A stretch of DNA of 64,000 bases from assembly GCA_964454905.1 (NCBI GenBank), contig CAYVTR010000001.1, forward strand, positions 44,436-108,435. The letters run 5' to 3'. A model generated the notes under the pieces. It ran no database searches. It worked only from the letters and a program-made list of their open reading frames with translations, and was not told where the DNA came from. This DNA is from an uncultured Woeseia sp. GTDB lineage: Bacteria > Pseudomonadota > Gammaproteobacteria > Steroidobacterales > UBA11654. Positions within the stretch are counted from its first letter, which is position 1, and every line of letters starts with the position of its first letter. The position numbers were made by a program, and so were the translations under genes. This document shows positions 23,538 to 58,168 of this stretch, piece by piece.

Positions 23538-23559
23538 TATTTTATCAATTGATTATGAA
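23538..23559. promoter_or_regulatory. Palindromic operator, site A (17/22 to consensus, 10-bp core perfect)
   Basis: TATTTTATCAATTGATTATGAA. Overlaps the ATG (23555) of the MFS-DUF1838-TetR operon and lies 37 bp from the divergent PON gene start. Confidence 0.6.
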
Positions 23560-24883
23560 TCAACCAGCAGAATCGTCAAAGAATAATGTTGCAGAAATGG
23601 GGATAAAGTTTGGCCCTATAACGCTCATGCCAGATATTGAGAAGCGTCATCTTTTCACCTTATTTTTTGGTGCATTCTTCGGTATTGCCAGTATGGCATT
23701 AGTAAATGTCTTTGGCCCATTGGTGTTCGATATACTTGAGATTCCTCAAAACGAAACGGGCGCCCTAGCAGGTAAACTGACTGCAATGCAAGAGATAGTT
23801 GTGGTCTGTGTGATCGGATTAGCTGGTGCATTTTCAGATAAAGTTGGAAGAAGAATTGTGTATTCAATGGGATTTGTTTTTCTCGGCATAGGTTATTTTC
23901 TTTATCCGCTAGCTGGAGATAGCACTGAGCTCATCATTTTCCGAATCTTTATTGCCCTAGGCTGTGCTTGCAATACAGTAATGCTGCCTACGACGGCTAA
24001 TGATTACGTTCATGAGAGCACTCGCGGAAAACTAATCGCAACCACATCGATATTGAACGGATTAGGCCTTGTCCTCATCATAGGAAGCTTTAGAAGACTT
24101 CCGGAGTATTTTGTTAATCAAGGTTTTGATAGTGCGATTTCAGGTCAATACACAATTTGGTGTGCTTCAGCAATGGTTTTAATCGTTTCTACTATTCTTT
24201 ATACCAATTTGAAAAAAGGTGCGCCTGCTCAGGTCACCAAAAAAGGGTCTTATTTTTCAACATTAGCAATAGCATTTAAAGAAGCTAGAAACCCAAGAGT
24301 CGCACTTGCTTATACCGCTGGCGTTGTATCAAGAGGAGATTTGTCAGTGGTCAGCACCTTTTTTTCATTATGGCTATTCAACGAGGCTATCACCATGGAC
24401 ATGAGTCGTGCTGAAGCGTTTAAATTATCCACTGGCTTTTATGTGATGGTTCAAGCTTTTGCTATTCCTGGAGCAGTTTTGATCAATTTTTTTATAGATA
24501 AAGTTGATCGTGTCATGGCCTTGGCAATTTCTATGTTTATTGCAGCCTGCGGATATCTGTATCTTGGTTTTATTGATGATATTTTCAGTAACCAAATGTA
24601 TTTCGGGGCAGCGCTTTTAGGTTTGGGTGAAATTTTTGCAAATATTTCTGCGATATCATTGATCGGAAGTGCTGCACCAGCAAAAGGTCGGGGCGCTGTC
24701 ATTGGCGGATTCAGTTTTTTTGGAGCAATTGGCATTCTGTTAGTTGCCAGTATTGGTGGCTATTTATTTGATAATGTAGGCCCAACCGCACCATTCACTA
24801 TGGTTGGTTTTGCTAATGTTGCTCTTTTAATTTTAGCGCTATTGTTGTTATTCTTTGAGAATAGAAAAAATAATTTAAATTGA
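23555..24883 (+). CDS. MFS transporter (paralog of 61767-63092)
   Basis: 12-TM pattern with MFS loop motif DKVGRRIVY. I prefer ATG 23555 (MNQPAESS) over the track start 23504, because 23504-23554 contains the operator palindrome and encodes an implausible N-terminus. Confidence 0.85.
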   Translation: MNQPAESSKNNVAEMGIKFGPITLMPDIEKRHLFTLFFGAFFGIASMALVNVFGPLVFDILEIPQNETGALAGKLTAMQEIVVVCVIGLAGAFSDKVGRRIVYSMGFVFLGIGYFLYPLAGDSTELIIFRIFIALGCACNTVMLPTTANDYVHESTRGKLIATTSILNGLGLVLIIGSFRRLPEYFVNQGFDSAISGQYTIWCASAMVLIVSTILYTNLKKGAPAQVTKKGSYFSTLAIAFKEARNPRVALAYTAGVVSRGDLSVVSTFFSLWLFNEAITMDMSRAEAFKLSTGFYVMVQAFAIPGAVLINFFIDKVDRVMALAISMFIAACGYLYLGFIDDIFSNQMYFGAALLGLGEIFANISAISLIGSAAPAKGRGAVIGGFSFFGAIGILLVASIGGYLFDNVGPTAPFTMVGFANVALLILALLLLFFENRKNNLN

Positions 24884-24895
24884 TTGAGGTTTAAT

Positions 24896-25891
24896 ATGGA
24901 ACGAAGACAATTTTTTAAGAACATAGGTAATTTAGGAGCTTTAAGTGCAGGTGCCGCAGCTCTTAGTATATTCTCAGATCAAGCCAATGCTGATTTACCC
25001 TCTGCCTATGGGGGCGCGAGAGGTGATGCCTTAAACGGACCTTATTTAGATCTTAAAACAGGTGTAGGTAATAAATTAGCCTATTCTAGATTAAATGGTG
25101 ATTTAGATGAATCAAAGCAAAAAATCGGTTGGTTTAAAGGTTATATTATGGCCGTCAGACCCAATAAGCCTATACTTGATGTTCTTGGTGTTGCAGGCTT
25201 TGGAGTGTCTAGATTAGAGCAGCAAGCTGATGGATCCTTTGCCAAGATTCTTAGAGAGGTTGCCCTTTATACTGATCTGAGATCTGGAGAGGTTTTAGAG
25301 GAATATAAGAATCCTATGACCAATGAAATGGTTAAGGTTGTTCCTATTGCTAATGACCCTTTTAATTATGTGATTGAGGATTATTTCCCTCAGCCACCAA
25401 AATTTGGTGATTTAAACACAGAGGAACCACCAAAGATTCCATTTATTTTACCGTGGCAACAACGAGGTGATCGATTGGATATGGAGATACATATCAATCT
25501 TTTTTATCCAAATGCTCTTAATCCAAATAAATGGAAACGCGAATCTTCAGGGCCTATGGTGCAGGTATCTGAGGCCTTTGCTTATCATATTGATGCACAA
25601 AAGATGCAGGATCCAAGTTACACTACACTGCCTTTTAGTGGCACTTGGAATCGAATTACTCCATGGCTTCCTTGGATGTATATGGGTGATACCCCAGGAC
25701 ACATGATATACTCAGCCTTTATGGGTTCTGGTGAAGATCTTGAAGAAGTTCATAGTCGACAGGTATTGGATTATGTAGAAAAAAATTATCCAAAGTATTT
25801 TACTGCCCCTGAGACCTATGATCCAAAAACACCAAGCCTTTCAAGTCTTGAGTTGTATGCGATAGAGCAAACACCAGCTCCAGTGAAGTAA
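24896..25891 (+). CDS. DUF1838-like protein with twin-arginine signal (paralog 1 of 3)
   Basis: Start at ATG 24896, preceded by GAGG. Canonical Tat signal MERRQFFKNIGNLGALSAGAAALSIFSDQANA. The core YKNPMTNEMVKVVPIANDP fits my memory of DUF1838 and is clearly homologous to 46722-47519 and 47516-48391. Confidence 0.6.
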   Translation: MERRQFFKNIGNLGALSAGAAALSIFSDQANADLPSAYGGARGDALNGPYLDLKTGVGNKLAYSRLNGDLDESKQKIGWFKGYIMAVRPNKPILDVLGVAGFGVSRLEQQADGSFAKILREVALYTDLRSGEVLEEYKNPMTNEMVKVVPIANDPFNYVIEDYFPQPPKFGDLNTEEPPKIPFILPWQQRGDRLDMEIHINLFYPNALNPNKWKRESSGPMVQVSEAFAYHIDAQKMQDPSYTTLPFSGTWNRITPWLPWMYMGDTPGHMIYSAFMGSGEDLEEVHSRQVLDYVEKNYPKYFTAPETYDPKTPSLSSLELYAIEQTPAPVK

Positions 25892-25902
25892 AAAAAATAG
25901 TT

Positions 25903-26559
25903 ATGGCAAAAATAGCAAAATTAAAATCAAAAAAAAGGTTAACTCCTAGAGACCGAGAACAAGAGATTGTTGATGAGGCTGTACAATTTTTTGCCGAAGT
26001 TGGTTTTGATGGAAAAACCAGAGACTTAGCAAAAAGAATTGGCATTACACAACCGCTCTTGTATCGATATTTCCCAACAAAAGATGATCTGATAGAAAGA
26101 GTTTATAAGGAAGTTTATTTAAATCAGATGGATTCTGATTGGTCGTTAAAGCTTAAAGACCGATCTGTGCCATTGGAAGAAAGATTGGTTGCTTATTATA
26201 AATCTTATGCCAAAGTAGTTCACCGGTATGAATGGATAAGGATCTATTTCTTCTCAGGTTTAATGGGTAACCCTTTAAACAGGAGATACATAAGAGTTGT
26301 TGAGGAAGAGATTTTAAAGCCCATCTGTGAAGAAATCAGAGTAACTTGTAATTTACCTTCAATCAGCGAAATCCCCATAACACCTATTGAATTGGAACAA
26401 ATATGGGTTTTGCATGGTGGATTATTCTATTACGCTGTTAGAAAGAATATCTATCACAGTAATGTTTTCGATGACTTTGAAGCAATTGTTTCCAGCACTG
26501 TTAAGGTTATGTTGGAGGGCACCAAAGTTTTTAGCATTGAAGAACAAAATTCAACTTAA
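25903..26559 (+). CDS. TetR/AcrR family transcriptional regulator
   Basis: 218 aa. N-terminal HTH REQEIVDEAVQFFAEVGFDGKTRDLAKRIGITQPLLYRYFPTKDDL. It is the only transcription factor in the window. Confidence 0.9.
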   Translation: MAKIAKLKSKKRLTPRDREQEIVDEAVQFFAEVGFDGKTRDLAKRIGITQPLLYRYFPTKDDLIERVYKEVYLNQMDSDWSLKLKDRSVPLEERLVAYYKSYAKVVHRYEWIRIYFFSGLMGNPLNRRYIRVVEEEILKPICEEIRVTCNLPSISEIPITPIELEQIWVLHGGLFYYAVRKNIYHSNVFDDFEAIVSSTVKVMLEGTKVFSIEEQNST

Positions 26560-26593
26560 GCTGAGATTAATACACTCTTAATTAGGACTAGTT

Positions 26594-27484
26594 TTGAATA
26601 GCAAAAATAATATTCATTCTGTAGGAGTGATTGGTTTAGGGATCATTGGTTCTGCTTTATCAAAGCATATACATTTAAGTGATTTTGATGTCATGGGATT
26701 TGATATTGATGATCTTAAAATTGAAGCAGCTATTGCTAACGGAATCGAAGCCACAAAAAAGCTCGCTAATATAACAGAATTTTCCGAAGTCTTAATTACT
26801 TGCTTACCGAGCAATAAATCCTTGGACGATACTGTCAATTATCTAATAGATAATAATTGTGATTCAGTAAAAATTATTATTGATACCAGTACTCTAAGTT
26901 TGGATTGCAAGACTAGGAACAAAAACGCACTGAATAAAATTGGTATTACTTTACTTGATTGCCCAATTAGTGGCACTGGCAAGCAAGCAGAAGATGCTGA
27001 CATTGTTATATACGCCAGCGGTAGTTCAAGTTCCTATGAAACAGTGCTTCCATTGATTAGAAGTTTTTCTAGAGAATGTTTTTATTTAGGTGATTTTGGT
27101 AATGGCACTAAAACAAAATTAATAGCTAACCTCCTTGTAGCTATTCATAATGTTGCCTCTGCTGAAGCCATTTTACTGGGAAAGAAAACCGGTATAGAAA
27201 TGGAGACGTTGTTTAATGTGATTGCTTCAGGTGCAGGAAGCTCAAAAATTTTTGAGCTCCGAGCTCCTATGATGATTGAGCGAGAGTATCAACCTCCAAC
27301 CATGAAAATGAGTGTCTGGAAGAAAGATTTAGAGCTGATTAAAGAGTTAGTGGATGCCCATGGAACTAATACACCTCTTTTTAATCTCACTAAAGAATTG
27401 TATAAAAAAGCAGTTGATCTTGGTTTAGATGATGAGGACACAGCCTCTATTTATGAAATACTTAATGCAAACTCTTCTCGATGA
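26594..27484 (+). CDS. NAD(P)-dependent oxidoreductase, 3-hydroxyisobutyrate dehydrogenase family
   Basis: 296 aa with a TTG start. Rossmann motif VGVIGLGIIGSAL and a GNGTKTKLIANLL block typical of the HIBADH/6-PGDH-like family. Confidence 0.8.
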   Translation: MNSKNNIHSVGVIGLGIIGSALSKHIHLSDFDVMGFDIDDLKIEAAIANGIEATKKLANITEFSEVLITCLPSNKSLDDTVNYLIDNNCDSVKIIIDTSTLSLDCKTRNKNALNKIGITLLDCPISGTGKQAEDADIVIYASGSSSSYETVLPLIRSFSRECFYLGDFGNGTKTKLIANLLVAIHNVASAEAILLGKKTGIEMETLFNVIASGAGSSKIFELRAPMMIEREYQPPTMKMSVWKKDLELIKELVDAHGTNTPLFNLTKELYKKAVDLGLDDEDTASIYEILNANSSR

Positions 27485-27499
27485 GTAGTTTTAAGACTC

Positions 27500-28267
27500 A
27501 TGGCGAATAGCCCAATCAATTTTTATATGCAAGGCAAGGGCCAACCTCTTGTTCTTATCCATCCTCTTGGTTTGGATCATAGACTCTGGGATTATTGTGT
27601 TAGTGGTTTGGCTGAACATCGGACTCTTATCACTTTTGACTTACCGGGACATGGTCAATCACCAGTGCCTGACATTAATTATTCAATTGAGGATATTTCA
27701 AAGAGTCTTTTAGAATCGCTGAGGCTAGCTCAGATCGAAAAAGCTGATTTTTTAGGTTTATCAATTGGCGGCATGATTCTTCAACATTTTGCTTCAGTAA
27801 ATGCGTCTATGGTAGACAAGCTGATTTTAGTGGATACCACGTTCAAATACTCAAAAGATTGGCAACTTAACTGGACTGAACGAGCCAGGACCTCAAGAGA
27901 AGAGGGCTTGGAGGGCATGTTAGAGAAATTACTCGAGGCCTTTTTTACTCCAGAGTATTTAGAAAAAGGATCAGACGACATTGATTATTGTAAGCACGTC
28001 ATTTCCAGAATGTCAGGAGAGGGTTACGCTTTAGCGTGCGAAGCTTTATCAAGATGTAACCTTGAGAAATCTGCGACTGCAATAACCTCAGAGACCTTAA
28101 TCTTATGCGGAGATCGAGACAATGATCTATTCAAAGACGCAACCTTATGGTTGTCTCAAAACATACCTAATGCTCAATATGAATGGCTCTCGCCTGCCCA
28201 ACATTTGTCACCGTTGGAATGCAAGAATGATTTTTTAAAAATTGTAAAACGATTCCTGCAAATATAA
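27500..28267 (+). CDS. Alpha/beta hydrolase (3-oxoadipate enol-lactonase-like)
   Basis: 255 aa. LVLIHPLG oxyanion region and nucleophile elbow GLSIGG. Length and pattern resemble PcaD-type lactonases. Confidence 0.75.
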   Translation: MANSPINFYMQGKGQPLVLIHPLGLDHRLWDYCVSGLAEHRTLITFDLPGHGQSPVPDINYSIEDISKSLLESLRLAQIEKADFLGLSIGGMILQHFASVNASMVDKLILVDTTFKYSKDWQLNWTERARTSREEGLEGMLEKLLEAFFTPEYLEKGSDDIDYCKHVISRMSGEGYALACEALSRCNLEKSATAITSETLILCGDRDNDLFKDATLWLSQNIPNAQYEWLSPAQHLSPLECKNDFLKIVKRFLQI

Positions 28268-28274
28268 GGACGAT

Positions 28275-29351
28275 TTACTTACTCAGTTTAGGGGTTACTT
28301 CTTTTGCCATTAATTCCATGGAGCGTTTTGACAATTCTGGATTAACCCAATCATGAGCCGCATAAACCAATGTGCCAAAGTCACCAGTGATGTCTTTAAA
28401 GGCCTCTATTTGTTCAACCACACTTTCTACAGTCCCGCATATAACCAATGAATCTAGAACATATTCTAGAGTGATATCAGAATCCGCCATGTCTCTGTCG
28501 TGCTTGAAGAGATCCGGCCTTCCATTTCCAATCAGTTTTTGCATGACTTGTTTGAAATAAAAATGATAAGGCCCCTTTGCCCCTTTGCCATATTCTTGAG
28601 CTGTTTTTTCATCATCAGCAACAAATATACTTTTAGCAACCCGCCAGTTTTCTGGTTTCGCTTCATAACCGCCTTGCTCGCAGCCTTTCACATACATAGG
28701 CCAATGCGAAGCCACCCAATTTGGTTGAAGAAAGTTTGCTGAAATCGGTTGCCAACCTCGTTCTGCAGCGGCAACGACGCCTTTAGAAAAAGGAGCGACA
28801 ACCGTCACTACTATTGGAGGGTGGGGTTGTTGATATGGGGTAACAATAACTCCCTGTCCTGTTTCTTCCACGTAGTTTTTTTCAGTAGTGATATCCCAAT
28901 ATTTACCTTTGATGTTATAGGGGGCAGGATTCTGCCATATCTCCAAAATATGATTAATTGATTCAACAAACATTTCGGTTCTATCGTTATCTAGATTTCC
29001 AAAAATTTCTGCATCTGACAATAAACCGCCTGGACTGATACCAAAAAGAAATCTACCTTCAAGCATATTATCAAGCATGGCGACTTGAGCAGCCACTGCA
29101 GCCGGATGGTTATTCGGCAGGTTAACCGTTCCACTGCCCAGTTTAATATTATTTGTAGAGTCAATGAGGCTGGCTATAAACACAAGGCATGAAGTAATTG
29201 CTTCTGCTTTATCTGTTATATGTTCACCAATAAAAGCTTCACTAAAACCTAATTGATCAGCAAGTATTATGGCTTCTCTATCTTCCTTTAGCACATCCAC
29301 ATAATTCCTGCTTGGAGGATGCAAGGGCATTGTAAATAATGAAAGATTCAT
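28275..29351 (-). CDS. Luciferase-like (LLM class) flavin-dependent monooxygenase
   Basis: 358 aa. The TIM-barrel LLM pattern (LGFSEAFIGEH, GSGTVNLPNNHPAAVA, GRFLFGISPG) resembles LimB/alkanal-type monooxygenases. Confidence 0.75.
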   Translation of the reverse strand: MNLSLFTMPLHPPSRNYVDVLKEDREAIILADQLGFSEAFIGEHITDKAEAITSCLVFIASLIDSTNNIKLGSGTVNLPNNHPAAVAAQVAMLDNMLEGRFLFGISPGGLLSDAEIFGNLDNDRTEMFVESINHILEIWQNPAPYNIKGKYWDITTEKNYVEETGQGVIVTPYQQPHPPIVVTVVAPFSKGVVAAAERGWQPISANFLQPNWVASHWPMYVKGCEQGGYEAKPENWRVAKSIFVADDEKTAQEYGKGAKGPYHFYFKQVMQKLIGNGRPDLFKHDRDMADSDITLEYVLDSLVICGTVESVVEQIEAFKDITGDFGTLVYAAHDWVNPELSKRSMELMAKEVTPKLSK

Positions 29352-29378
29352 ATTATTTATGTTATTAAAAAAGATTAT

Positions 29379-29400
29379 TTATTGATCAATTGATAAATAG
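29379..29400. promoter_or_regulatory. Palindromic operator, site B (20/22)
   Basis: TTATTGATCAATTGATAAATAG. Lies between the divergent LLM monooxygenase (start 29351) and the RidA-triple operon (start 29486). Confidence 0.7.
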
Positions 29401-29485
29401 TAGTATATCTGAATTGATTTAACAATTAAGTATCAGATTTAATCGAATACTATTGTTACAAATCAGTTAATATTCAAGGAGATTA

Positions 29486-30772
29486 ATGGCAGAACAACAA
29501 ATAACACCTATCGCAATATGGCCTGGATTGGAGGACGGGGTTCCCAAACCAATTATGCCTTATAGTCCAGCTATAAGACTAGGAGATTGGGTGTTTATAG
29601 CAGGGCAATTAGCCAGTGATTTTAAAACAGGCGTGCCCAAAGAGTTGATCCCTAAATCTGAAGGGGGTAGCACAGGGCTTCAACTTCAATCGGATTTTAT
29701 TTTCAAAAATATGACTCAGACTGTTCAAGCAGCTGAAGCTAATATGAGAACAGATGCTGTCAAACTTTGGGAATGGTTTGTCTCGAATAAACCTGATGCA
29801 CAAGATATTGCCAGTGGTAATAATGCTCATGATGTTGACATTAATAGTTATGAACGGTCACTACATCAGGCATTTGGTAACAAGTGTCCCTCTAGGTCTT
29901 CTATTGGCATTAAAGAACTAATGTGGCTTGGCACTAAAATAGAGTTAGAGGTGATGTGTCTAACCACAGAAGATAAGACCACTTATTATAATTTAGACTC
30001 TGATCCTGAAAAACATGGTGCATTGAGAAAAGGCGATTGGGTCTTTATTTCAAATCAAAATCCAGAGAATAATAAAGGAGAAACCCCAGAATCATTAGAA
30101 GCACAGTTTGATGTTGTTATGAGCAAGATTACAGAATTATCTGAACGCTCAGGTTCATCTTTAGAAAATGCAGTAAAAGCTGAGGTTTTTATCAGTCATC
30201 CAAACGACTTCATCGCAATTGACCAGTTATGGAAGAAATGGTTTCCTAATAACCCTCCAGCACGATTTGTTTTACCAAGATCAGCGATGCAAGCGGGCGA
30301 TTCAAAAGTTGAAGTTTCAATGATGTCTTTGGTTAATGACACTTCACTGTCTAAGAAAATTATTGAGACTTCTGAGGCACCAGAACCACTTGGACATGAA
30401 CCCCAAGCTGTGCAGGTTGATTATCTCTTATTTTACAGCACTCAAATGGCCTTTGATTCTTCAGGGAAGATTGCAGAAGGAATGACCAGGAATAATGCAG
30501 CACCTTGGTATGGCAGACCAGCTCAAGCACAAATGAGATATATGATGTCAAATATCAATACGATTGCTGAAGCAGCCGGTTCCTCAGTGGAGAATATTGT
30601 AAGACGAGCCTGTTTTCATAATGATTTACAGTGGTTTGCAGAATCAATTGAAGAATGGGCCAGGTATTTTCCAAATGATAAACCGGCTTCAACAACTATA
30701 GGCCTTAATGATTCATTGGTTATTGATGGCTCTAATACACTATTAGATTTAATAGCATATGTGCCTAAATAG
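29486..30772 (+). CDS. Triple-domain RidA/YjgF/TdcF-family protein
   Basis: 428 aa in three consecutive ~125-160-aa units, each opening with a RidA-like strand-helix start: PYSPAIRLGDWVFIAGQLA, HGALRKGDWVFISNQNP and EPQAVQVDYLLFYSTQMA. AAGGAG ribosome-binding site upstream. Confidence 0.7.
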   Translation: MAEQQITPIAIWPGLEDGVPKPIMPYSPAIRLGDWVFIAGQLASDFKTGVPKELIPKSEGGSTGLQLQSDFIFKNMTQTVQAAEANMRTDAVKLWEWFVSNKPDAQDIASGNNAHDVDINSYERSLHQAFGNKCPSRSSIGIKELMWLGTKIELEVMCLTTEDKTTYYNLDSDPEKHGALRKGDWVFISNQNPENNKGETPESLEAQFDVVMSKITELSERSGSSLENAVKAEVFISHPNDFIAIDQLWKKWFPNNPPARFVLPRSAMQAGDSKVEVSMMSLVNDTSLSKKIIETSEAPEPLGHEPQAVQVDYLLFYSTQMAFDSSGKIAEGMTRNNAAPWYGRPAQAQMRYMMSNINTIAEAAGSSVENIVRRACFHNDLQWFAESIEEWARYFPNDKPASTTIGLNDSLVIDGSNTLLDLIAYVPK

Positions 30773-30783
30773 CTTTTAAAATA

Positions 30784-45743: not shown

Positions 45744-45744
45744 C

Positions 45745-50800: not shown

Positions 50801-50835
50801 TATAGAATTCAAGAAAATAATCTAAAGGGATACGA

Positions 50836-52653
50836 ATGAAACTTAAAGCCTTTCATATAGTTATAATTTTATGTTTTGTTGCAAAAAGCACTTTTATCCA
50901 CTCCACAGAACAGGGTAATAATGAAGCATTAGAGAACGCCATATCTGGTTTAGGTGGAACTTTGGCTTTGAGTCAACTGGAAGGCTATAAGATAGTGAGC
51001 GAAAGAGACGAGTACATTATGGGTCAAGGAGCTGAACCCGGAAAAGGCATGATGTTATTGGCTGCTCCTTCCACAATTGTTGCTCATAGACTTGATAACA
51101 AATCCATTAGGGTAGATTTAATCACCACTCTGGCGGCTAGAGAGGGAGGTTACTTAACTAGAGAAAGTAACATTTTACTGCTTGGAGATGCTGGGTACCT
51201 CAGTGAGGATGACGCTATGGGCATAGTGAAAGAAAGAGACAAAGTTCTTTCTCCTGATAAGGCAGCAGCAAATATAAAAACAGAACGACTTCTTAATCCA
51301 CATCTACTAATCAAAGAGGTTTTGAATGACCCTAGCTTGTTGTTAGATCAAAAAATTCAAACAAATTCTGAGCGAGGCTGGAGATATCATCAAGATGAAG
51401 TTATGCCCGTCACCATAGATCGTATTCGTCAAACAGGCTTAAGAACACTCATAGCGACTCAAGAGTGGGAGAATGAAGCGAGCAAGAAAGTTTTCTATCC
51501 AAAGATGATCAATAAAACAGTCATTAATCCTGAGTGGTTTAATGATTGGAAGAGTAATACCCAAATTGATGAAGAAAAGTTTGATCAATTCAGTTTAAGA
51601 GATAAAGTTTATCCCATCACTTTTTTCGTTAATAAAAAAACAGGCTTAATAGAAAAGTTAAGCACCATGGAGTGGGATGTTGTCTATGGCGATATTGAAA
51701 TTGAGGTAAAATTTGATGATTGGAACATGGACAATAAAATTCCTTTCCCTATGACGGTGAAAATGTCGCAAGGCGGCGCACCAAGATGGGAAATCAGGCG
51801 AAAAAGCATAGAACTCAATCCAGATTATTCGCCTGATTATTTTAGCCCTCCAAAGCAGCTAGATTATGTTCATGATGTGGGATCAGCTAAAAGAGGTTGG
51901 GAAGTAAGCCAAACAATGAGGATGTTTACCTTATCAGTTGCCTACAGACCTGAAATTAATGCATTAGAATTAGATGATGGAGTTCATTATCTTTCTGCTC
52001 TACCTATTGATGGGGTGTACACGATGGTTGTTGAGCAAGAGAATGGAGTAGTAGTAGTAGAGCCTGGGATGAATGACTTAAAGGGCGAAGAGATTATTAA
52101 ATGGATACAACAAAACATACCCGGTAAGCCCATCACACATATAATTCCTACACATCATCATAATGATCATGGTGCAGGCATTAGACCCTATGTCGCTGAA
52201 GGAGCAGCTCTCGTAGCACATGAGACAGCAGTAGATTTTTACCGTACTCAAATTAATCGACCAAAATCATCTGTGGTTATTGATGCGCTTGATAGGGAAT
52301 TTAAAAAAGGATCAGAAACGGTCATCGGTGTCACAAGTAATGATGCGTATACAATTGAAGATACCGATCGACCCGTTGTGATCTATCCTGTGTTGAATGG
52401 GCATGTGGAAGATATGGTTATTATCTTGGTGGGCAATAAAAATTTTCTATATGCAGGTGATCTATACGTTAGTGGTATTGCTAGGGATAAAAGATCAGGA
52501 ACCAAAAGAGGACCCAATGTTGTACCATATCATTCAGCCATATCATTGAATGAGACGATAATGAAATTTAACATTCCCAGAGGGCCTCTATTGGGTTCCC
52601 ATGATAAAGAAGCAGTCAGTTATCAAGATTTAATTGATTACATCACCGATTGA
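50836..52653 (+). CDS. Secreted two-part protein: unrecognised ~370-aa N-terminal domain plus C-terminal metallo-beta-lactamase fold
   Basis: 605 aa. Signal peptide (IVIILCFVAKSTFIHS). MBL motif IIPTHHHNDHGAG at about residue 438 with later His/Asp ligands. I recognise no family for the N-terminal part. Confidence 0.7.
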   Translation: MKLKAFHIVIILCFVAKSTFIHSTEQGNNEALENAISGLGGTLALSQLEGYKIVSERDEYIMGQGAEPGKGMMLLAAPSTIVAHRLDNKSIRVDLITTLAAREGGYLTRESNILLLGDAGYLSEDDAMGIVKERDKVLSPDKAAANIKTERLLNPHLLIKEVLNDPSLLLDQKIQTNSERGWRYHQDEVMPVTIDRIRQTGLRTLIATQEWENEASKKVFYPKMINKTVINPEWFNDWKSNTQIDEEKFDQFSLRDKVYPITFFVNKKTGLIEKLSTMEWDVVYGDIEIEVKFDDWNMDNKIPFPMTVKMSQGGAPRWEIRRKSIELNPDYSPDYFSPPKQLDYVHDVGSAKRGWEVSQTMRMFTLSVAYRPEINALELDDGVHYLSALPIDGVYTMVVEQENGVVVVEPGMNDLKGEEIIKWIQQNIPGKPITHIIPTHHHNDHGAGIRPYVAEGAALVAHETAVDFYRTQINRPKSSVVIDALDREFKKGSETVIGVTSNDAYTIEDTDRPVVIYPVLNGHVEDMVIILVGNKNFLYAGDLYVSGIARDKRSGTKRGPNVVPYHSAISLNETIMKFNIPRGPLLGSHDKEAVSYQDLIDYITD

Positions 52654-53651
52654 GAATTACATTGAGAAGGGTGTATCAGTTTTGTCAAATTACAGCGCCT
52701 CTGCTCTGTTTATCATTTATAGCTTTGAATATTAATTCCCATGAAATTAATGCATCACAATTGATCAAGGATTGTGAGCATTGCCCACAAATGATTATTA
52801 TAGAACCTGGTGAATTCATTATGGGCTCGTCATCAAGCGTTGAAGGATCTAGGGATGATGAGCGACCACAGCATCAAGTTCGCATAGAGTATTTTTTTGC
52901 TGCGGGACAGTATGAGGTCAAAAGAATTGAGTTTGAGCAATTTATACGAAGCACAGGATATGACATGTCAGGTGGTTGTTATGGAGCAACGGAAAATGGT
53001 ATTCAACTTGGAAAAAATTTAGATTGGAATGATCCTGGTTATCCTATTTCAGATGATCATCCAGTTGTATGTGTGAGCTGGAATGATGCCAAGGCATACA
53101 CAAGTTGGTTATCAAAAAAGACTGGTTACAGATATCGACTTTTTTCTGAATCTGAGTGGGAGTATGTAGCCAGAGCAGGAACAAACACCATTCGCTTCTG
53201 GGGAGACAGCGAAGAGGGGTGTGAATTTGCAAATGGTGCAGATCTTGATATTACACCAGAAGCATTTCTGGAAGAAATGCGAGCCAGACAAACAAAAATT
53301 GTGTTACCTGAAAACTGGAAAGTTGCAAACTGTCATGATGGTTTTATTACCTCAGCTTCTGTAGGTTCCTTCAAGCCCAATGCATTTGGTATTTACGATA
53401 TCTTAGGTAATGTTGCAGAGTGGGTAGAGGATTGTTATAACGATTCCTATATAAATGCCCCAAATGACGGCTCAGCAAGATTATACGGGGACTGTGATAG
53501 ACCTATTTTAAGAGGCGCTTCATATTACGACATGCCGATCTACTTGAGATCATCAAATCATTATGGTTTTCAATCAGATCAATCAAAAAATAAAGATACT
53601 CGTTACATCAATTTCGGTTTTAGAGTAATGCGAGAAGTGACAGAACATTAA
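52650..53651 (+). CDS. Formylglycine-generating-enzyme (SUMF1/EgtB/PvdO) family protein, predicted exported
   Basis: 333 aa with a TTG start overlapping the upstream stop. CEHCPQMIIIEPGEFIMGS, HPVVCVSWNDAKAYTSWLS, LFSESEWEYVARAG, GNVAEWVEDC and RGASYY blocks of the FGE fold. Confidence 0.85.
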   Translation: MRITLRRVYQFCQITAPLLCLSFIALNINSHEINASQLIKDCEHCPQMIIIEPGEFIMGSSSSVEGSRDDERPQHQVRIEYFFAAGQYEVKRIEFEQFIRSTGYDMSGGCYGATENGIQLGKNLDWNDPGYPISDDHPVVCVSWNDAKAYTSWLSKKTGYRYRLFSESEWEYVARAGTNTIRFWGDSEEGCEFANGADLDITPEAFLEEMRARQTKIVLPENWKVANCHDGFITSASVGSFKPNAFGIYDILGNVAEWVEDCYNDSYINAPNDGSARLYGDCDRPILRGASYYDMPIYLRSSNHYGFQSDQSKNKDTRYINFGFRVMREVTEH

Positions 53652-54277
53652 TGAGATCAATAACTGTTTTACTGAGCCTTGTATTTATTGTTATTTTCTC
53701 TAACGTGGTTTATGCCAATCCAAGTAATCTTCAATCTTTACCTTTATGCCAATCTTGTCATGGCGAATCACTTCAAGGGAATCAATCCCTCCAGGCGCCA
53801 TTATTATCAGGATTAAGTCAATGGTATTTATATCGTCAGATGAAAAATTATAGAGATGGTATTAGAGGTACCCATCCTCAGGATATTTTTGGTCAAAGCA
53901 TGCGACTAAGCATCATGAATCTGAATGATAGTGAGGTTCAAGCACTTGCAGAATATATTTCTAAAATCAGTGTTGATAAACAGCCAATAAGCATTCAAGG
54001 AGACATAGAGACAGGCAAATTTGTATTTGAACATTGTATTTCATGTCACGGTGAATTTGGAGAAGGCGATCAGACCATAGGTGCACCAAGATTAACAGGA
54101 CAAAGTGATTGGTATCTTTATGAGCAAATGATTAATTTTCAAAAAGACATAAGAGGTAACCATCAAGACGATCTATATGGAAAGCTAATGAAGGACATGG
54201 CATACATGTTTGATGAGCAAATGTTGAGAGATGTGGTGTCTTATATTTCAACCATTGATCAAGAAGACAATCAATAA
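53651..54277 (+). CDS. Diheme c-type cytochrome (c4-like), periplasmic
   Basis: 208 aa with a signal peptide. Two CxxCH motifs (CQSCHG, CISCHG), each followed by a repeat of the form AP.L.G.S.WYLY.QM.N...IRG. The start overlaps the upstream stop (TAATG). Confidence 0.9.
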   Translation: MRSITVLLSLVFIVIFSNVVYANPSNLQSLPLCQSCHGESLQGNQSLQAPLLSGLSQWYLYRQMKNYRDGIRGTHPQDIFGQSMRLSIMNLNDSEVQALAEYISKISVDKQPISIQGDIETGKFVFEHCISCHGEFGEGDQTIGAPRLTGQSDWYLYEQMINFQKDIRGNHQDDLYGKLMKDMAYMFDEQMLRDVVSYISTIDQEDNQ

Positions 54278-54281
54278 TCAG

Positions 54282-55763
54282 TTAAATAATTTCCTTAAAT
54301 TTTTCTTCAATAGTTTCCAAAAGTTCGGGAAACTCTTCTCTGAGGCATGCAATATTCATTTTTGAAAATGGTTTGTCAGTTTGGCTTTCTGTAGCATTTC
54401 TGGTTGCATCAATGATGATCCTGCTCCCTACGCCCTTTTCAGAGGAACTGGGATCTCCACTCAATGCATTAGCATTGTCAATTATTTCTGATGACCTCTG
54501 CGGCTGCCATCTTGACCCTAGTGCATGAAGCACCTGATTTAAGTTATGTATATCAACATCCTCATCAAGGAGAACGGTTATTTTTGCAATTTTCAAAGAT
54601 GTAGATATAGATCGACCTATATCAAAGGTTTTCTTAGTGCTAGTTGTTTTTATTTTTGCAAAACAAAAACCTGGAAATTCTAGTGGATAGTGTAAGCCAA
54701 TGAAATCATCAAACTCGTCACGATACTTTCTGTTCAGATTGGCTTCAATGGGTGCAGTTAAGCAACCTCGGGTAATACCTGTGAATTGATTTGGAACAAT
54801 AGGGTTATGTCTATGTGTGATGGTTTTAACATTCATCAAGAAGTTTTCCTTTTGCAGTTCACCGATGTATCCATACATCTCTCCAAATGGCCCTTCTTCT
54901 TCCATTTCATCAAGAGGTATTTCACCTTCTATGATCAATTCAGCATGAGCAGGCACAGATATAGCTGAGGTTTCACATTTAACAATTTCTATAGCTTGAC
55001 CCATGAGCCCGCCTGCTATAGCTAATTCATCTTCACCATATTTTGCTACTTTTGATCCACTCATGGAGAAAGTGATAGGGTCGGTACCTATTACAATTGC
55101 AACTTGAGCAGTGACTCTTCCTTGTGCTTTTAGTTGTTGAAGAAATTTCCAACCGTCTTGATTCACCTGAGGATTGATCCCAATTTTTTTTGAGCTTTTG
55201 ATTTGGCAACGATAAGTGCCCACATTTCTTCCCAGTTCATTATCCTCCAGAATCACGCTCCCAGTATTGATGTAACACCCATTATCTGCAGGGTTGGTTT
55301 GTAGGAATGGAAAATTGAAAAGATCCATGTTGTCTCCTTCGACAATATTTTCTTTGCACGGTGCCTTACTTGCATCAATGGTTACGGGTTTTATGATCGG
55401 CCATTTGCCATCTTGATCAATATGCTGCTCAATTTTCTCTATTGCCGACTGATAATTTTGTTCTGATGAAGACCCGTAAGGCATGATGCCAAGTGCTAGT
55501 GCCTCAAGATCCCATTTGCCGTATAAATTTCCAACGGATGATTGTTCAAATACATTGTCTCTGGAACGAATTTTGTCGAAAAATAAGACTGGTGCTTCAC
55601 GGACATTGTGTTTTTCAATGATTCGATACATTAAAGCAGTCGCTTCGTAGTTGTTTTGATTAATATCGTCAATATGGAGAATATGACCAAAATGCTCTAA
55701 GGCATCAAGGTATTGTCTTAATGATTGATAAGGGCCGAGATATTTATCCTTCATAAGGATCAA
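54282..55763 (-). CDS. UbiD-family (prFMN-dependent) decarboxylase
   Basis: 493 aa. UbiD blocks DLFNFPFLQTNPADNGCYINTG, NVGTYRCQ, DELAIAGGL, VPAHAELIIEGEI and EGPFGEMYGY. Confidence 0.85.
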   Translation of the reverse strand: MILMKDKYLGPYQSLRQYLDALEHFGHILHIDDINQNNYEATALMYRIIEKHNVREAPVLFFDKIRSRDNVFEQSSVGNLYGKWDLEALALGIMPYGSSSEQNYQSAIEKIEQHIDQDGKWPIIKPVTIDASKAPCKENIVEGDNMDLFNFPFLQTNPADNGCYINTGSVILEDNELGRNVGTYRCQIKSSKKIGINPQVNQDGWKFLQQLKAQGRVTAQVAIVIGTDPITFSMSGSKVAKYGEDELAIAGGLMGQAIEIVKCETSAISVPAHAELIIEGEIPLDEMEEEGPFGEMYGYIGELQKENFLMNVKTITHRHNPIVPNQFTGITRGCLTAPIEANLNRKYRDEFDDFIGLHYPLEFPGFCFAKIKTTSTKKTFDIGRSISTSLKIAKITVLLDEDVDIHNLNQVLHALGSRWQPQRSSEIIDNANALSGDPSSSEKGVGSRIIIDATRNATESQTDKPFSKMNIACLREEFPELLETIEEKFKEII

Positions 55764-55796
55764 AAAATAATTGTTTTTATTAAAAGAGTGATCATT

Positions 55797-56465
55797 TTAT
55801 AAGGGCTTCAACTCACCTAGGAATGCCATCAGAATAACCAAAACCCAAATAAGCAAGGCGGCTTTATTTAAAACTGCTTGCTCTTTCTTAATTGACTCTT
55901 CTCCTTGTGTTTTAGTTTCAGCGTCTTGCGCTAAGTGAATAGACTTTCGCATTCTCCCTACTATAGCTCTTATCCAGATGCCATTAACAAGAATTAGACC
56001 AAAGATTATAATTTTCCAAGACAGCCAGTCACTTTGTATAATTTGATTCGTAATAAGACAATAAATTCCTAAAGTAATTAATAAGCCTGACAGTATATAT
56101 CTTATAAGCAGATCTAATTTTCTTAGTAACTCTCCAAAGGCGGTTTCTTTTTTAAAATGAACCAGCCATATTAGTCCTAACCACACAAAGCTAAATAGCC
56201 ATATGACTGTTAAGGCTGTCCCTTTAATTTCTGAACCAAAGGTTGTTGCTAAGGTAAAGCCGATAGGTAGGAGTAGGACTAAGCTGGTTCTAGCAGACAT
56301 ATCAACAAGAAAACGCATCGATCTCACTCTCAGTCTTTCTTCAATAGTTAGTTCCTCTTTAGTGATGTAATTGCCTATAAAATAAACAGCAATGTCCCCT
56401 CCAATTGCATAAACAAAGAGAACAACATGAAAAAATGCCATTAGGTCATGAAAGTTAATAATCAT
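55797..56465 (-). CDS. Integral membrane protein, unknown family
   Basis: 222 aa with about six predicted TM helices. Sits between the UbiD and BBE-oxidase genes on the same strand. Confidence 0.55.
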   Translation of the reverse strand: MIINFHDLMAFFHVVLFVYAIGGDIAVYFIGNYITKEELTIEERLRVRSMRFLVDMSARTSLVLLLPIGFTLATTFGSEIKGTALTVIWLFSFVWLGLIWLVHFKKETAFGELLRKLDLLIRYILSGLLITLGIYCLITNQIIQSDWLSWKIIIFGLILVNGIWIRAIVGRMRKSIHLAQDAETKTQGEESIKKEQAVLNKAALLIWVLVILMAFLGELKPL

Positions 56466-56493
56466 AATGACAGTCTAGCGGAAATTTTTTGAT

Positions 56494-57969
56494 TCAAATA
56501 CTAGGTTTAATATTACCATTGAGCCTGAAAAGATTTCTCGGATCGTATTTATTCTTAATTTTCACCAGTCTTCCATAATTCTGACCGTAACTAGTGGCAA
56601 CAAATTGCTGATCTTCATCCATTAATTCATTGATATATATTCTATCAGCACAATACGGAGTTAGGGCTTTCCAGTAATCTCTTCCCCATTGTGTATAAGC
56701 CTCATTTTTTTCGTCATCAACCCAGTGTCCACCGACTTCAATGTCCCATTTAGCGTTTCTTCCAACCCAAGCTGTTTCATCTTCAGCAACTTCTGTAATT
56801 GCTCCTCCGAAGCGAACCACTCGCATGGTATCAAAACGACCTTCTTGGTAACCCCAACCTTCCATGAGTTCATCTGTTAACTTTGGATTGTATTCGTCAA
56901 TATGCCTGCCTTTTATATAATAATTTCTATGGTGGGCATTTCTTTTATCAGCAATTTGCTGATGATCACTGAAGTTTTTCTTTGATACGTCATCAGAAAT
57001 TGGTTTTCCAAAACTTCTAATCGTTTTAAGGGCCTTTTCTGCTTTATTTTCATCACCTAGATATAAGGCTCCTAGAAAAAAGTAACCTTCACCTTCAGCA
57101 ACATTCCACATGCCTGCATTAAGCATGATTTTCGAGTCCATGTCTTCAGAGTAATCGTAATAGAAATCCCAAAGTTCTTTTGCGTACTTAAGATCATAAA
57201 GATTAACGCCGACAATAATTTCTCCGTTTGGAAGAGGGCGAAGATTGTATTCAAATGAGGTCACGACACCAAAATTACCGCCGCCACCTCTGATTCCCCA
57301 GAAAAGATCTGGATTTTCATCTGCACTTGCTTTTCTCATAACACCGTCAGTCGTGATGATATCAACGCTTCTTAAGTTATCTATTGTGAGCCCATACATT
57401 CTCATTAGCGACCCTATACCTCCTCCGAGGGTTAAGCCGGCAACTCCAGTATGAGAAACAACTCCAGCAGGTACGACATACCCATACGGCAGTGTTTTTG
57501 AATCCAGATCATATAAGGTACAACCCGGTTCGACAGTAACTATTTTTCTTTGCAGGTCCACACCGGTTTTTCTCATTCTTGAAAGATCAATAATGATTCC
57601 TCCATCGCAGGTTGATTTGCCCGATATGCTATGACCTCCGCTACGAATTGCGGTGAGTATATTTTGTTCTCTTGAAAAATTAATTGCCTGTTGGATATCT
57701 GCAGCAGACTCACAAAAAGCTATGAGTGCAGGGCGTTTATCCCAAACCCCATTCCAAACCAATCTAGCTGTATCATAATCATAGTGTTCTTTTGTGATAA
57801 CACTGCCTTGAAAGCTAGCCATGAAGTCCAGTATATCGACTCTATCTAGAATTATTTCATTACCATTCAATGACAACGCCACTGTATCTTGGATTGCAGC
57901 ATTACTTATGGGCACGTAGGAGGCTAAAGAAATAATCCCTGCATTTTTAATAAATTCTCTTCTTTTCAT
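56494..57969 (-). CDS. Tat-exported FAD-linked oxidase of the VAO/BBE family, copy 2
   Basis: 491 aa. Tat signal MKRREFIKNAGIISLASYV. IRSGGHSISG, VSHTGVAGLTLGGGIG and RGGGGNFGVVT blocks, with tail YDPRNLFRLNGNI. Paralog of 48400-49890. Confidence 0.85.
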   Translation of the reverse strand: MKRREFIKNAGIISLASYVPISNAAIQDTVALSLNGNEIILDRVDILDFMASFQGSVITKEHYDYDTARLVWNGVWDKRPALIAFCESAADIQQAINFSREQNILTAIRSGGHSISGKSTCDGGIIIDLSRMRKTGVDLQRKIVTVEPGCTLYDLDSKTLPYGYVVPAGVVSHTGVAGLTLGGGIGSLMRMYGLTIDNLRSVDIITTDGVMRKASADENPDLFWGIRGGGGNFGVVTSFEYNLRPLPNGEIIVGVNLYDLKYAKELWDFYYDYSEDMDSKIMLNAGMWNVAEGEGYFFLGALYLGDENKAEKALKTIRSFGKPISDDVSKKNFSDHQQIADKRNAHHRNYYIKGRHIDEYNPKLTDELMEGWGYQEGRFDTMRVVRFGGAITEVAEDETAWVGRNAKWDIEVGGHWVDDEKNEAYTQWGRDYWKALTPYCADRIYINELMDEDQQFVATSYGQNYGRLVKIKNKYDPRNLFRLNGNIKPSI

Positions 57970-58078
57970 GGTGTCATAGTCCTCTTAAAATACTACTCAG
58001 CAGTTCAATTTATTGCACGTTTAACTGTAAAGAAAGGAATCTCTACTTGCTAAGGGTTAAAATTTTATACATTTTTCC

Positions 58079-58100
58079 TTATTAATCAATTGATAAATAA
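58079..58100. promoter_or_regulatory. Palindromic operator, site G1 (21/22)
   Basis: TTATTAATCAATTGATAAATAA. Lies in the 267-bp divergent region between BBE-oxidase copy 2 (start 57969) and the TonB-dependent receptor (start 58237). Confidence 0.75.
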
Positions 58101-58124
58101 ACTTTGCACTTGTCAGCGGTTTAT

Positions 58125-58138
58125 TATATATATATATA
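58125..58138. repeat. (TA)7 dinucleotide tract between operators G1 and G2
   Basis: TATATATATATATA, read directly from the sequence. Confidence 0.9.
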
Positions 58139-58146
58139 GGATATAT

Positions 58147-58168
58147 TTATTTATCGATCGATAATTGA
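58147..58168. promoter_or_regulatory. Palindromic operator, site G2 (18/22; own 14-bp perfect palindrome TTATCGATCGATAA)
   Basis: TTATTTATCGATCGATAATTGA. Lies 69 bp upstream of the TonB-dependent receptor start, with its centre 68 bp from the G1 centre. Confidence 0.55.

Follow-up and report, generated by a model that had tools for sequence, protein, structure and literature searches.

Nine copies of a 22-bp palindrome as probable operators of one TetR-family regulator in a catabolic gene island

The nine palindromes found in the window (the whole stretch of 64,000 nucleotides analysed here) are, judging from sequence and comparison with relatives, most probably the operators of a single TetR-family regulator encoded among them (Table 1). 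A TetR homodimer would recognise a 22-bp site of 9-4-9 architecture, TTATTTATC-N4-GATAAATAA, with TTATCA-NN-TGATAA as the conserved core. From sites in all seven main promoter spacers of an island of about 40 kb, the bound protein would hold 12 units (33 genes) off, its own operon included via site A, until a small molecule, either the substrate or an intermediate of the pathway, released it from the operators. In this way we infer that the protein binds the sites and represses rather than activates, that a ligand induces the units, and what kind of substrate is involved.

Table 1. Putative operators, regulator gene and predicted regulon in the window
Feature	Position	Strand	Sequence	Context
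TetR-family regulator gene	25903..26559	+		218 aa; third gene in operon headed by site A
Site A	23538..23559	.	TATTTTATCAATTGATTATGAA	53-bp divergent spacer, PON-hyp-SDR (-) / MFS-DUF1838-TetR-dehydrogenase-hydrolase (+)
Site B	29379..29400	.	TTATTGATCAATTGATAAATAG	spacer, luciferase-like monooxygenase (-) / RidAx3-dehydrogenase-CocE-racemase (+)
Site C	41143..41164	.	TTATTTATCAGATGATAAATAA	upstream of CoA-transferase-hydrolase-ACAD-GPH-amidohydrolase (-)
Site D1	45704..45725	.	CTATTAATCATTTGATAAATAA	divergent spacer, AACS (-) / MTHFR (+)
Site D2	45745..45766	.	TTATTTATCAATTGATAAATAA	perfect palindrome; centre 41 bp from that of D1
Site E	49922..49943	.	TTATTTATCAAATGATAAACAA	upstream of BBE-like oxidase 1 (-)
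Site F	50779..50800	.	TTATTAATCAAATGATAAATAG	spacer, NmrA-like reductase (-) / MBL-FGE-cytochrome c (+)
Site G1	58079..58100	.	TTATTAATCAATTGATAAATAA	spacer, BBE2-hyp-UbiD (-) / TonB-dependent receptor (+)
Site G2	58147..58168	.	TTATTTATCGATCGATAATTGA	centre 68 bp from that of G1, receptor side
Predicted regulon span	21033..60906	.		33 genes, 12 transcription units, SDR gene to TonB-dependent receptor

A palindrome confined to promoter spacers

Direct inspection of the window recovered all nine 22-mers of an earlier note with the positions and sequences reported there, and ATC at positions 7-9 and GAT at positions 14-16 were invariant in nine of nine, as that note had described. The central 4 bp vary freely, as a spacer would. 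With the consensus 22-mer and up to 3 mismatches, 8 matches were obtained compared with 0.00 in 100 dinucleotide shuffles, corresponding to seven of the known sites and a weak one within secA, while TWATCRNNYGATWA with up to 1 mismatch gave 14 matches compared with 3.97 ± 1.83. A matrix built from the nine sites scored them at 18.7-33.3 bits, and random first-order Markov windows reached at least 18.7 bits only 0.015 times per 64 kb. A second matrix, trained on 100 sites from TetR orthologue loci with high GC in other bacterial families, placed the nine window sites in the first nine ranks (16.6-25.9 bits), the best non-site match in the window being 10.7 bits; since the training sites were chosen by the core pattern, the independence of this test is limited to the flanks and positions 10 and 13. 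A chance origin of the nine sites can be excluded.

The scan covered the window, about 10 kb past its right edge and, in relatives, as much as 10 kb of flank; further sites may lie in the rest of the genome, and a second protein of like specificity may exist. No sites were found at 1-21 kb, at 58.3-64 kb or in the roughly 10 kb past the right end. The observation that the housekeeping part carries no copy of the palindrome was sustained, its sole weak match being a half-site at 7493 inside secA. Among gene-upstream spacers of at least 50 bp in the ORF table, a site is present in 7 of 8 between 23.5 and 58.3 kb, where only 46644-46721 is site-free, and in 0 of 8 elsewhere (hypergeometric p about 7e-4, computed by hand). 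In the scanned window, the sites are real, non-random and confined to promoters.

Intergenic copies could also be RNA hairpins (attenuators or terminators) or a small mobile or REP-like repeat instead of protein-binding sites, which we consider extremely improbable. Perfect copies can fold as an 8-bp hairpin of -5.4 kcal/mol, but for A, B and G2 the folding energy is 0 to -2.2 kcal/mol, not better than in shuffles, and the sites are located upstream of genes on both strands, divergent spacers included, and not at operon ends. A structured RNA or terminator was rejected, since three of the five folded sites were no better than shuffles, the arm mismatches are uncompensated and no Rfam match was found in the window. 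The lack of compensation, noted earlier, was confirmed across sites, and with hairpins weak or absent (0 to -5.4 kcal/mol) the preference for a dimeric DNA-binding protein over an RNA hairpin stands. The mobile repeat was also rejected: the same core is kept beside TetR orthologues in genomes of 36-70% GC from three classes, which such a repeat would not explain.

The TetR protein and the motif in its relatives

A TetR-type HTH was identified in the candidate regulator by Pfam (TetR_N, residues 22-67, E 2.4e-13, 50 bits with a cut-off of 24). Its AlphaFold2 model is all-helical, with 10 helices and a pLDDT of 80.5, and has the two-domain TetR fold; compared with the PDB, it gave 80 matches at E <= 1e-3, and all 50 of the 50 listed are TetR-family regulators. 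This is the sole regulator gene found by Pfam in 17-64 kb, and no DNA-binding domains were found in 1-17 kb. In 20 orthologues the HTH region is nearly invariant, which fits an operator that is unchanged across classes.

TetR orthologues are present in Alpha-, Beta- and Gammaproteobacteria. The set analysed comprised 80 loci whose TetR is 49-89% identical; they come from genomes of Woeseiaceae-like bacteria, Porticoccaceae, Halomonas, Stellaceae, Rhodospirillales and Burkholderiales. In these loci the core with up to 1 mismatch occurred 139 times compared with 25 expected, and the core palindrome was found within 3.5 kb of the TetR gene in 68 of the 80. At the same distance, TTATC-N4-GATAA was present in 52 of 62 loci with at least 50% GC, about 2.2 sites being expected in total. 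In 27 of 80 loci, the 300 bp upstream of the TetR start contain a site, the layout that would be expected under autoregulation; in the window, site A heads the TetR operon. In genomes of 55-70% GC, the motif is mostly at the promoter of the TetR-containing operon, and in many of these loci the only common neighbours are the TetR gene and one to three enzymes. In addition, a pattern scan of GTDB species representatives gave 464 loci encoding a TetR relative in Alpha-, Beta- and Gammaproteobacteria. Among the loci compared, the motif was shown to co-occur and co-evolve with this TetR orthologue group. The earlier proposal of this protein as candidate regulator gains support from a core palindrome that travels with its orthologues through three proteobacterial classes.

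Another regulator encoded outside the window, possibly a global one such as a Fur-like protein, might bind the palindrome, with the in-island TetR gene being just one of the regulated genes. We regard this as quite unlikely. The AT-rich motif with GATAA/TTATC superficially recalls Fur boxes, a TonB-dependent receptor is among the targets and the scan was confined to the window and about 10 kb; however, even in genomes of 55-70% GC from alpha-, beta- and gammaproteobacteria the motif accompanies the TetR orthologue and, the receptor aside, no iron-uptake genes were found among the targets by Pfam. The Fur box itself was rejected, since the sites match the 19-bp consensus GATAATGATAATCATTATC at 9-12 of 19 positions, like the window background (mean 9.6, 95th percentile 12).

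The assignment of the sites to TetR agrees with their positions in diverged relatives. Conservation upstream of orthologous operons, which the earlier note had proposed as a check, was found, and it backs the idea of one regulon across the island. Site A, the weakest of the nine, overlaps the MFS ATG at 23555; it is kept as TTATCAAGTGATTA in L013, L014, L017 and L020. That this site, at the head of the regulator's own operon, is so weak and is missing from the related lineage L011/L015/L016/L018 speaks against the assignment. In alignment A3, site B stands out as an invariant block across 6 lineages, and the equivalent position is occupied in the distant genomes L023, L025, L037 and L055. Sites C to G2 hold position where the neighbouring proteins of relatives are only 50-67% identical. 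C, D2, E and F hold their positions in L094, L095 and L096, and relatives with MTHFR 87, 82 and 50% identical retain all five sites from C to F; E persists in L095 despite inserted genes, and F is also kept in L100, L103, L104 and L106. G1 is found 110-165 bp upstream of BBE2 orthologues 97-74% identical, with a second, weaker site 53-67 bp from it in 10 of these 11 loci (L098-L107 and L111; L102 has one site). At 67% BBE2 identity, one or more sites remain in two of three loci, the third having only 112 bp upstream, and at 48% one site remains.

Promoter context and content of the island

The sites lie 6-190 bp from start codons, over or beside promoter-like hexamers, most of them being centred 6-50 bp from the start, with G1 and G2 at 80-190 bp. 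The earlier description of sites lying on a start codon or shortly upstream depends on the start call: with the starts of other gene callers, A overlaps the MFS ATG at 23555, and 10 nt separate the end of D2 from a TTG at 45777. TTGATA on both strands in each half, also described earlier, proved to be true only for D2, and C and G2 do not contain it on either strand. Site C overlaps the minus-strand promoter-like pair TTATCA-16-TATATT. D1 contains the -35-like TTGATA of the plus-strand pair TTGATA-17-TATACT, and D2, which lies just past the plus-strand -10, the -35-like TTATCA of the minus-strand pair TTATCA-17-TATTAT. In the D spacer, each site covers one promoter's -35-like hexamer and is situated downstream of the opposite promoter's -10, a geometry that suits repression. 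Since promoter-like hexamers are not enriched (49 compared with 61.6 in shuffles), the overlap with promoters is suggestive only.

With sites close to starts and over or beside such hexamers, a bound protein would hold the units off, and this overlap makes repression relieved by a ligand the likely mechanism. TetR-type repressors typically have autoregulatory sites upstream of their own gene and a catabolic setting, and both features speak against the alternative that TetR binds the sites but mainly activates or works dually, as LuxR/HapR do. To this alternative we assign a small probability. It draws on the nearest solved relatives and the 9-4-9 architecture, which are those of LuxR/HapR/SmcR, and on G1 and G2, whose 80-190 bp from the starts leave enough distance for activation, whereas most sites, at 6-50 bp, overlap -35/-10-like hexamers. 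LuxR/HapR-type TetR proteins are known for activation as well as repression, with symmetric palindromes as the repression-type sites (PMC8034623), and all nine sites here are near-symmetric.

Under ligand-relieved repression, the predicted regulon would contain the following genes. The earlier gene annotation was confirmed by Pfam, except that an NmrA-like gene at 49969-50700 (-), with site F at its promoter side, had been missed. Transporters are represented by the TonB-dependent receptor, MFS and GPH, and enzymes by many esterases and lactonases, by CoA-activating and acyl-CoA enzymes, BBE-like oxidases and UbiD. The luciferase-like monooxygenase is of the Baeyer-Villiger type and closest to 3,6-diketocamphane 1,6-monooxygenase. 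The island also holds three DUF1838 proteins, an FGE-like protein with cytochrome c and several hydrolases of metallo-beta-lactamase fold or alpha/beta type. The enzymes suggest that the ring of a cyclic ketone or lactone-type compound is cleaved and that CoA-dependent steps then complete the breakdown.

Regulation by a TetR-type protein through palindromic operators is a textbook mechanism, and its value here is in what the operators delimit. The switch is of an ordinary kind, but unusually large and well conserved. The operators would join 33 mostly vaguely annotated genes of an uncultured pelagic gammaproteobacterium as one functional unit, and link the island to a core operon, small and conserved, that hundreds of proteobacterial species of sea and soil carry. 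They would offer a handle on a catabolic pathway, with one regulator, one 22-bp site and one effector, as well as a candidate TetR/operator pair that would respond to a ligand and whose operator is very well defined. More tentatively, and at rather less than even chance, the TetR subfamily and its operator may mark a widespread uncharacterised pathway, whose small core operon would have grown to a regulon of about 40 kb and 33 genes in Woeseiaceae-like bacteria. Its core would be formed by the Baeyer-Villiger-type luciferase-like monooxygenase, a CocE/NonD hydrolase and a 3-hydroxyacid-dehydrogenase-like enzyme; the expanded single-regulator regulon with its own TonB-dependent receptor would belong to low-GC pelagic Woeseiaceae-like bacteria, and the regulator might work there in a LuxR/HapR-like dual mode. 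If true, the operator map would list all the genes by which one compound is taken up and broken down, a compound perhaps abundant in marine dissolved organic matter.

Comparison with the closest known systems

The rut operon for pyrimidine utilisation, with the TetR-family RutR, a luciferase-like monooxygenase, a RidA-family protein and an alpha/beta hydrolase, resembles the island in its TetR regulator, luciferase-like monooxygenase, RidA domains, alpha/beta hydrolase and 3-hydroxyacid dehydrogenase-type reductase, and RutR is among the fold matches of the TetR model. A Rut system was nevertheless rejected by scores far under the cut-offs for RutC (67.3 bits with a cut-off of 169.1) and RutD (45 with a cut-off of 238.5) and by a monooxygenase without RutA match. 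The RutR operator, TTGACCANNTGGTCAA, differs from the island palindrome.

Vibrio LuxR/HapR/SmcR/OpaR are TetR-family quorum-sensing master regulators with a 22-bp motif, TTATTGATA-N4-TATCAATAA. HapR, SmcR and LuxR are the nearest solved relatives of the window TetR by sequence (E about 5e-8, residues 8-116), as well as the top Foldseek matches. The published 22-bp 9-4-9 motif of LuxR/HapR/SmcR, TTATTGATAAATTTATCAATAA (PMC8034623), is in register with the nine sites at 14-18 of 22 identical positions, and shares with them the length, the 9-4-9 arrangement, a 4-bp spacer with little conservation and outer flanks that are AT-rich. The window TetR has a basic N-terminal extension with an arginine, R12, invariant in the orthologue alignment, which might read the outer minor groove as the arm of LuxR does. 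However, T6, C9, G14 and A17 are invariant here where LuxR has G6, A9, T14 and C17, so the sites do not conform to the LuxR motif; as the arms differ at positions 6 and 9, the invariant ATC/GAT is ATA/TAT in LuxR. LuxR/HapR orthology was rejected, the NCBIfam HapR model NF040929 giving 27.5 bits with a cut-off of 350, and the gene, probably autoregulated, belongs to a local catabolic island instead of a quorum-sensing cascade.

The tetO operator, bound by the tetracycline repressor, is TCCCTATCAGTGATAGAGA. Its half-site core TATCA/TGATA is found here in the same orientation, although the half-sites are one base pair further apart in the island palindrome (two central bases, not one). The recognition helices are similar, TRDLAKRIGITQPLLY in the window protein and TRKLAQKLGVEQPTLY in the tetracycline repressor, and the HTH is 33% identical to that of TetR(B) over 51 residues (with an approximate TetR(B) sequence). 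The likeness is confined to the HTH, the NCBIfam TetR model giving 32.9 bits with a cut-off of 265. As in the tet system, paired operators lie between divergent genes (D and G spacers) and the expected logic is ligand-relieved repression, but it would extend over nine operators and 33 genes, where the tet system has one divergent pair.

The nine palindromes and their scores

The earlier note had placed nine 22-bp palindromes, predicted operators named A, B, C, D1, D2, E, F, G1 and G2, in the window. Their coordinates and sequences were all verified, and the ATC-N4-GAT pattern said to be invariant was found in 9/9 sites. With the consensus 22-mer at up to 3 mismatches, 8 matches were obtained in the window and 0 in 100 dinucleotide-preserving shuffles, while the 14-bp core TWATCRNNYGATWA at up to 1 mismatch gave 14 matches against 3.97 ± 1.83 in shuffles. 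In a window scan with a symmetric scoring matrix built from the nine sites, seven of them reached 28.5–33.3 bits, G2 23.1 and A 18.7. The best non-site match in the window, inside secA, scored 17.8 bits and the remainder at most 10.9; in 200 first-order Markov random windows, 18.7 bits or more was reached 0.015 times per 64 kb. The nine-palindrome feature is real and well supported.

Other origins of the repeat were considered. Agreement of the sites with the Fur consensus did not exceed background, and a Fur box was rejected. Read as RNA hairpins or terminators, they gave folding energies of 0 to −5.4 kcal/mol, three of five tested sites were no better than shuffles, and the window had no Rfam match; this reading was rejected as well. 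The arm mismatches were confirmed to be uncompensated and the folds are weak, in line with the earlier argument that such mismatches favour a dimeric protein over an RNA hairpin.

Co-occurrence with TetR orthologues

The proposed binder, a TetR-family gene (TetR hereafter), is the sole gene with a DNA-binding domain in the whole window according to Pfam. Its predicted structure shows the standard TetR fold. No family name could be assigned, as no NCBIfam model scored above its cut-off. More than 1500 protein homologues were found. Among GTDB species representatives, a pattern scan gave 464 loci with a relative, of which the best 80 were used; in these, TetR is 49–89% identical and the sources are Woeseiaceae-like bacteria, Porticoccaceae, Halomonas, Aquisalimonas, Stellaceae, Rhodospirillales and Burkholderiales. 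Among 20 diverse orthologues, the HTH region hardly varies.

In the best 80 of 464 loci, TTATC-N4-GATAA with up to 1 mismatch occurs 139 times, compared with 25 expected from composition. Of the 62 loci with at least 50% GC, 52 have a site no more than 3.5 kb from the TetR gene (about 2.2 expected, summed over these spans), and in 27 of the best 80 one is found in the 300 bp preceding the TetR start. Locus layouts were obtained by mapping the window proteins onto the orthologue loci. In Stellaceae and Rhodospirillales (66–70% GC), one or more sites are followed by the monooxygenase, sometimes CocE (CocE/NonD hydrolase), and TetR with a dehydrogenase. In Porticoccaceae, a metallo-beta-lactamase gene and a site precede a divergent TetR-dehydrogenase-RidAx3-dehydrogenase-CocE unit (RidAx3, three RidA genes), and in Burkholderiales the site separates the divergent monooxygenase and TetR genes. 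The Halomonas order (TetR 49–50% identical) is CoxSML-type molybdenum hydroxylase, site, TetR, second site and CoxG.

These counts and layouts indicate that the motif travels with TetR, usually at the promoter of the TetR-containing operon, as is characteristic of operators through which a TetR-type regulator controls its own gene. Conservation of the core beside TetR orthologues, across genomes of 36–70% GC and across classes, led to the rejection of a mobile or REP-like repeat. Conservation of the motif near orthologous genes, which the earlier note had proposed to check, holds across both the TetR loci and the island relatives. TetR, its candidate regulator, is likewise favoured by the co-occurrence of the core with orthologues and the recurring promoter placement.

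A second matrix was trained on 100 sites from high-GC loci only. Applied to the window, it ranked the nine sites as the top nine (16.6–25.9 bits; next 10.7); the training sites had been chosen with a core taken from the window, which limits the independence of this test to the flanks and to positions 10 and 13. The secA match, TTATTTATCAATTAAGAAATGA, corresponds to a half-site, with 3 mismatches, and its 17.8 bits were obtained with the window-trained matrix; it was not among the top matches of the independently trained one and is probably due to chance.

Two locus-specific observations were made. In L090 (Halomonas sp. C05BenzN) and L082, where the TetR homologues are more distant (49–51% identical), the palindrome core lies on both sides of TetR, which is flanked by an operon for a CoxSML-type molybdenum hydroxylase and by a coxG-like gene; these loci suggest that the operator was recruited for another set of enzymes. 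Several ORFs called in the high-GC L090 locus gave no Pfam match and are probably in the wrong frame. In L013 (TetR 88% identical), the alpha/beta-hydrolase gene after the dehydrogenase is present as two ORFs of 142 and 116 aa, possibly a frameshift or pseudogene.

Extent of the island and conservation of its sites

Pfam agreed with the earlier annotation of the island, the catabolic genes at about 21–61 kb, except that an NmrA-like gene had been overlooked.

Features and their positions (window coordinates unless a locus is named)
Feature	Positions	Strand	Remark
ftsA	2873–4105		
Gap between ftsA and lpxC	4105–4203		97 bp only
lpxC	4203–5117		
secA half-site	7493–7514		within secA
FG-GAP/ASPIC protein and flavin amine oxidase genes	17876–20988		no operator
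Predicted local regulon	21033–60906		
DUF1838 paralogue	24884–25891		
TetR	25903–26559	+	
ATTTAACAATTAA block	about 29417–29429		LLM/RidAx3 spacer (LLM, luciferase-like monooxygenase)
Island spacer lacking a site	46644–46721		
DUF1838 paralogue	46722–47519		after MTHFR gene
DUF1838 paralogue	47516–48391		after MTHFR gene
NmrA-like gene	49969–50700	−	served by site F; Pfam
Three-gene operon	50836–54277		
L090 TetR region	6050–11470 (L090)		
L013 hydrolase gene	11580–12364 (L013)		two ORFs

From 1 to 17 kb, Pfam identified a gammaproteobacterial housekeeping row: murB, ddl, ftsQ, ftsA, lpxC, secA, a mutT-like gene, zapD, coaE, sucCD, bamD, rluD and aspS. ftsZ is missing from this otherwise typical murB-ddl-ftsQ-ftsA-[ftsZ]-lpxC-secA row. 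Gene-upstream spacers of at least 50 bp were counted from the ORF table: between 23.5 and 58.3 kb, 7/8 contain one or two sites, and outside this range 0/8 in the same window (hypergeometric p ~7e-4, computed by hand). The ~10 kb past the window's right edge, taken from a metagenome contig of identical sequence (L097), contain no site. The spacer counts and the site-free right flank point to a predicted local regulon of 12 transcription units and 33 genes. The earlier interpretation, of one regulon under a DNA-binding protein with TetR as the candidate, is essentially right.

The TetR protein is encoded in identical form on marine metagenome contigs of unchanged gene order, and the closest species representatives are 'uncultured Woeseia sp.' MAGs of ~37–40% GC. 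C, D1, D2, E and F lie at unchanged positions in relatives with MTHFR 87, 82 and 50% identical; in the 50% lineage three extra genes are inserted and the C–F sites are still present. In the D spacer, between AACS (−) and MTHFR (+), the stretch from D1 through a −10-like hexamer to D2 is conserved and the flanks have diverged. Upstream of BBE2 (BBE-like oxidase 2) orthologues 97–74% identical, 10/11 loci retain the G1/G2 pair. At 67% identity, one or two sites occur in 2/3 loci, and the third offers no more than 112 bp of upstream DNA; a single site is left at 48%, and none was found upstream of BBE homologues at 36–42%. In six lineages, site B forms an invariant block. The 73–89% lineages retain site A, which the L011/L015/L016/L018 lineage lacks. 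In every comparison the central four bases are free to vary. About 20 bp downstream of operator B, a second block, ATTTAACAATTAA, is invariant in six lineages (alignment A3, over the site B spacer) and could be a promoter element or another factor's site.

Other features of the region were recorded. Several related lineages preserve the synteny of the FG-GAP/ASPIC and flavin amine oxidase genes with the island (9 loci for the oxidase: L001, L011, L013, L015–L018, L020–L022). The three-gene operon encodes an unusual combination of a 605-aa metallo-beta-lactamase-fold protein, an FGE-sulfatase-domain protein and a dihaem-like cytochrome c. It is kept in L094 (82% MTHFR lineage), and the L096 (87%) and L095 (50%) contigs stop inside or just past its second gene. 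The regulon holds three DUF1838 paralogues, and its MTHFR shares only 36–41% identity with the other MTHFR homologues retrieved, those from Woeseiaceae MAGs among them.

Regarding the pathway, the monooxygenase (28275–29351) is closest to 3,6-diketocamphane 1,6-monooxygenase (E 7.5e-33), which belongs to the type II Baeyer-Villiger enzymes. Esterase/lactonase-type folds abound in the island: a PON-like protein, two metallo-beta-lactamase-fold proteins, a 3-oxoadipate-enol-lactonase-like hydrolase, another alpha/beta hydrolase and CocE/NonD (31680–33416). CoA-activating and acyl-CoA enzymes are present as well. Within the best 80 of 464 loci, the dehydrogenase is the partner most often conserved with TetR (51 loci), followed by the monooxygenase (38, ~69% identity), CocE (36, ~68%), RidAx3 (24) and the amidohydrolase (21).

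Promoter geometry and likeness to known systems

Site centres lie 6–190 bp from start codons; a start codon is within 50 bp of 8/9 sites, the nearest to G2 being at 79.5 bp. The D spacer carries TTGATA-17-TATACT on the plus strand, with the −35 inside D1 and the pair ending just before D2, and TTATCA-17-TATTAT on the minus strand, with the −35 inside D2 and running toward D1. Comparable promoter-like overlaps exist at C, E, F and G1. Such hexamer pairs were not enriched (49 vs 61.6 in shuffles), so the geometry fits repression without proving it. TTGATA had been described on both strands in each half-site, but it was found so only in D2 and on neither strand in C and G2, and distant orthologue-locus sites mostly read ATGATAA. 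TTGATA as a −35-like hexamer is no inherent property of the motif.

A TetR homodimer would repress all 12 units, its own included, and would be released by a pathway metabolite. TetR may possibly act instead as an activator or dual regulator, since its nearest solved relatives, HapR, SmcR and LuxR, both activate and repress; its match to PDB relatives is confined to the N-terminal, DNA-binding part (residues to about 116). The D-spacer geometry is consistent with repression, though promoter-like pairs are unenriched.

Literature searches found nothing relevant for TetR with luciferase-like monooxygenase and CocE, only two Streptomyces biosynthesis papers for DUF1838, and no occurrence of six operator strings. 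Protein families of the Rut system are common to the island, but equivalog scores fall far under the cut-off and membership of that pathway was rejected.

For Vibrio LuxR, the published motif, TTATTGATAAATTTATCAATAA (PMC8034623), is a 22-bp palindrome of 9-4-9 layout. In register, the nine sites match it at 14–18/22 positions (window background mean 6.6, 99.9th percentile 14) and differ at arm positions 6 and 9, exactly the bases invariant in the nine sites. TetR is not a LuxR/HapR orthologue (27.5 bits vs a cut-off of 350). The half-site core TATCA/TGATA is like that of TetR/tetO with one extra central base pair, and the recognition helix resembles that of TetR(B). Systems of this TetR type are well known, and this member is new and uncharacterised; its interest lies mainly in mapping an uncharacterised catabolic pathway and, further, in the unusually many operators for one local TetR regulator.
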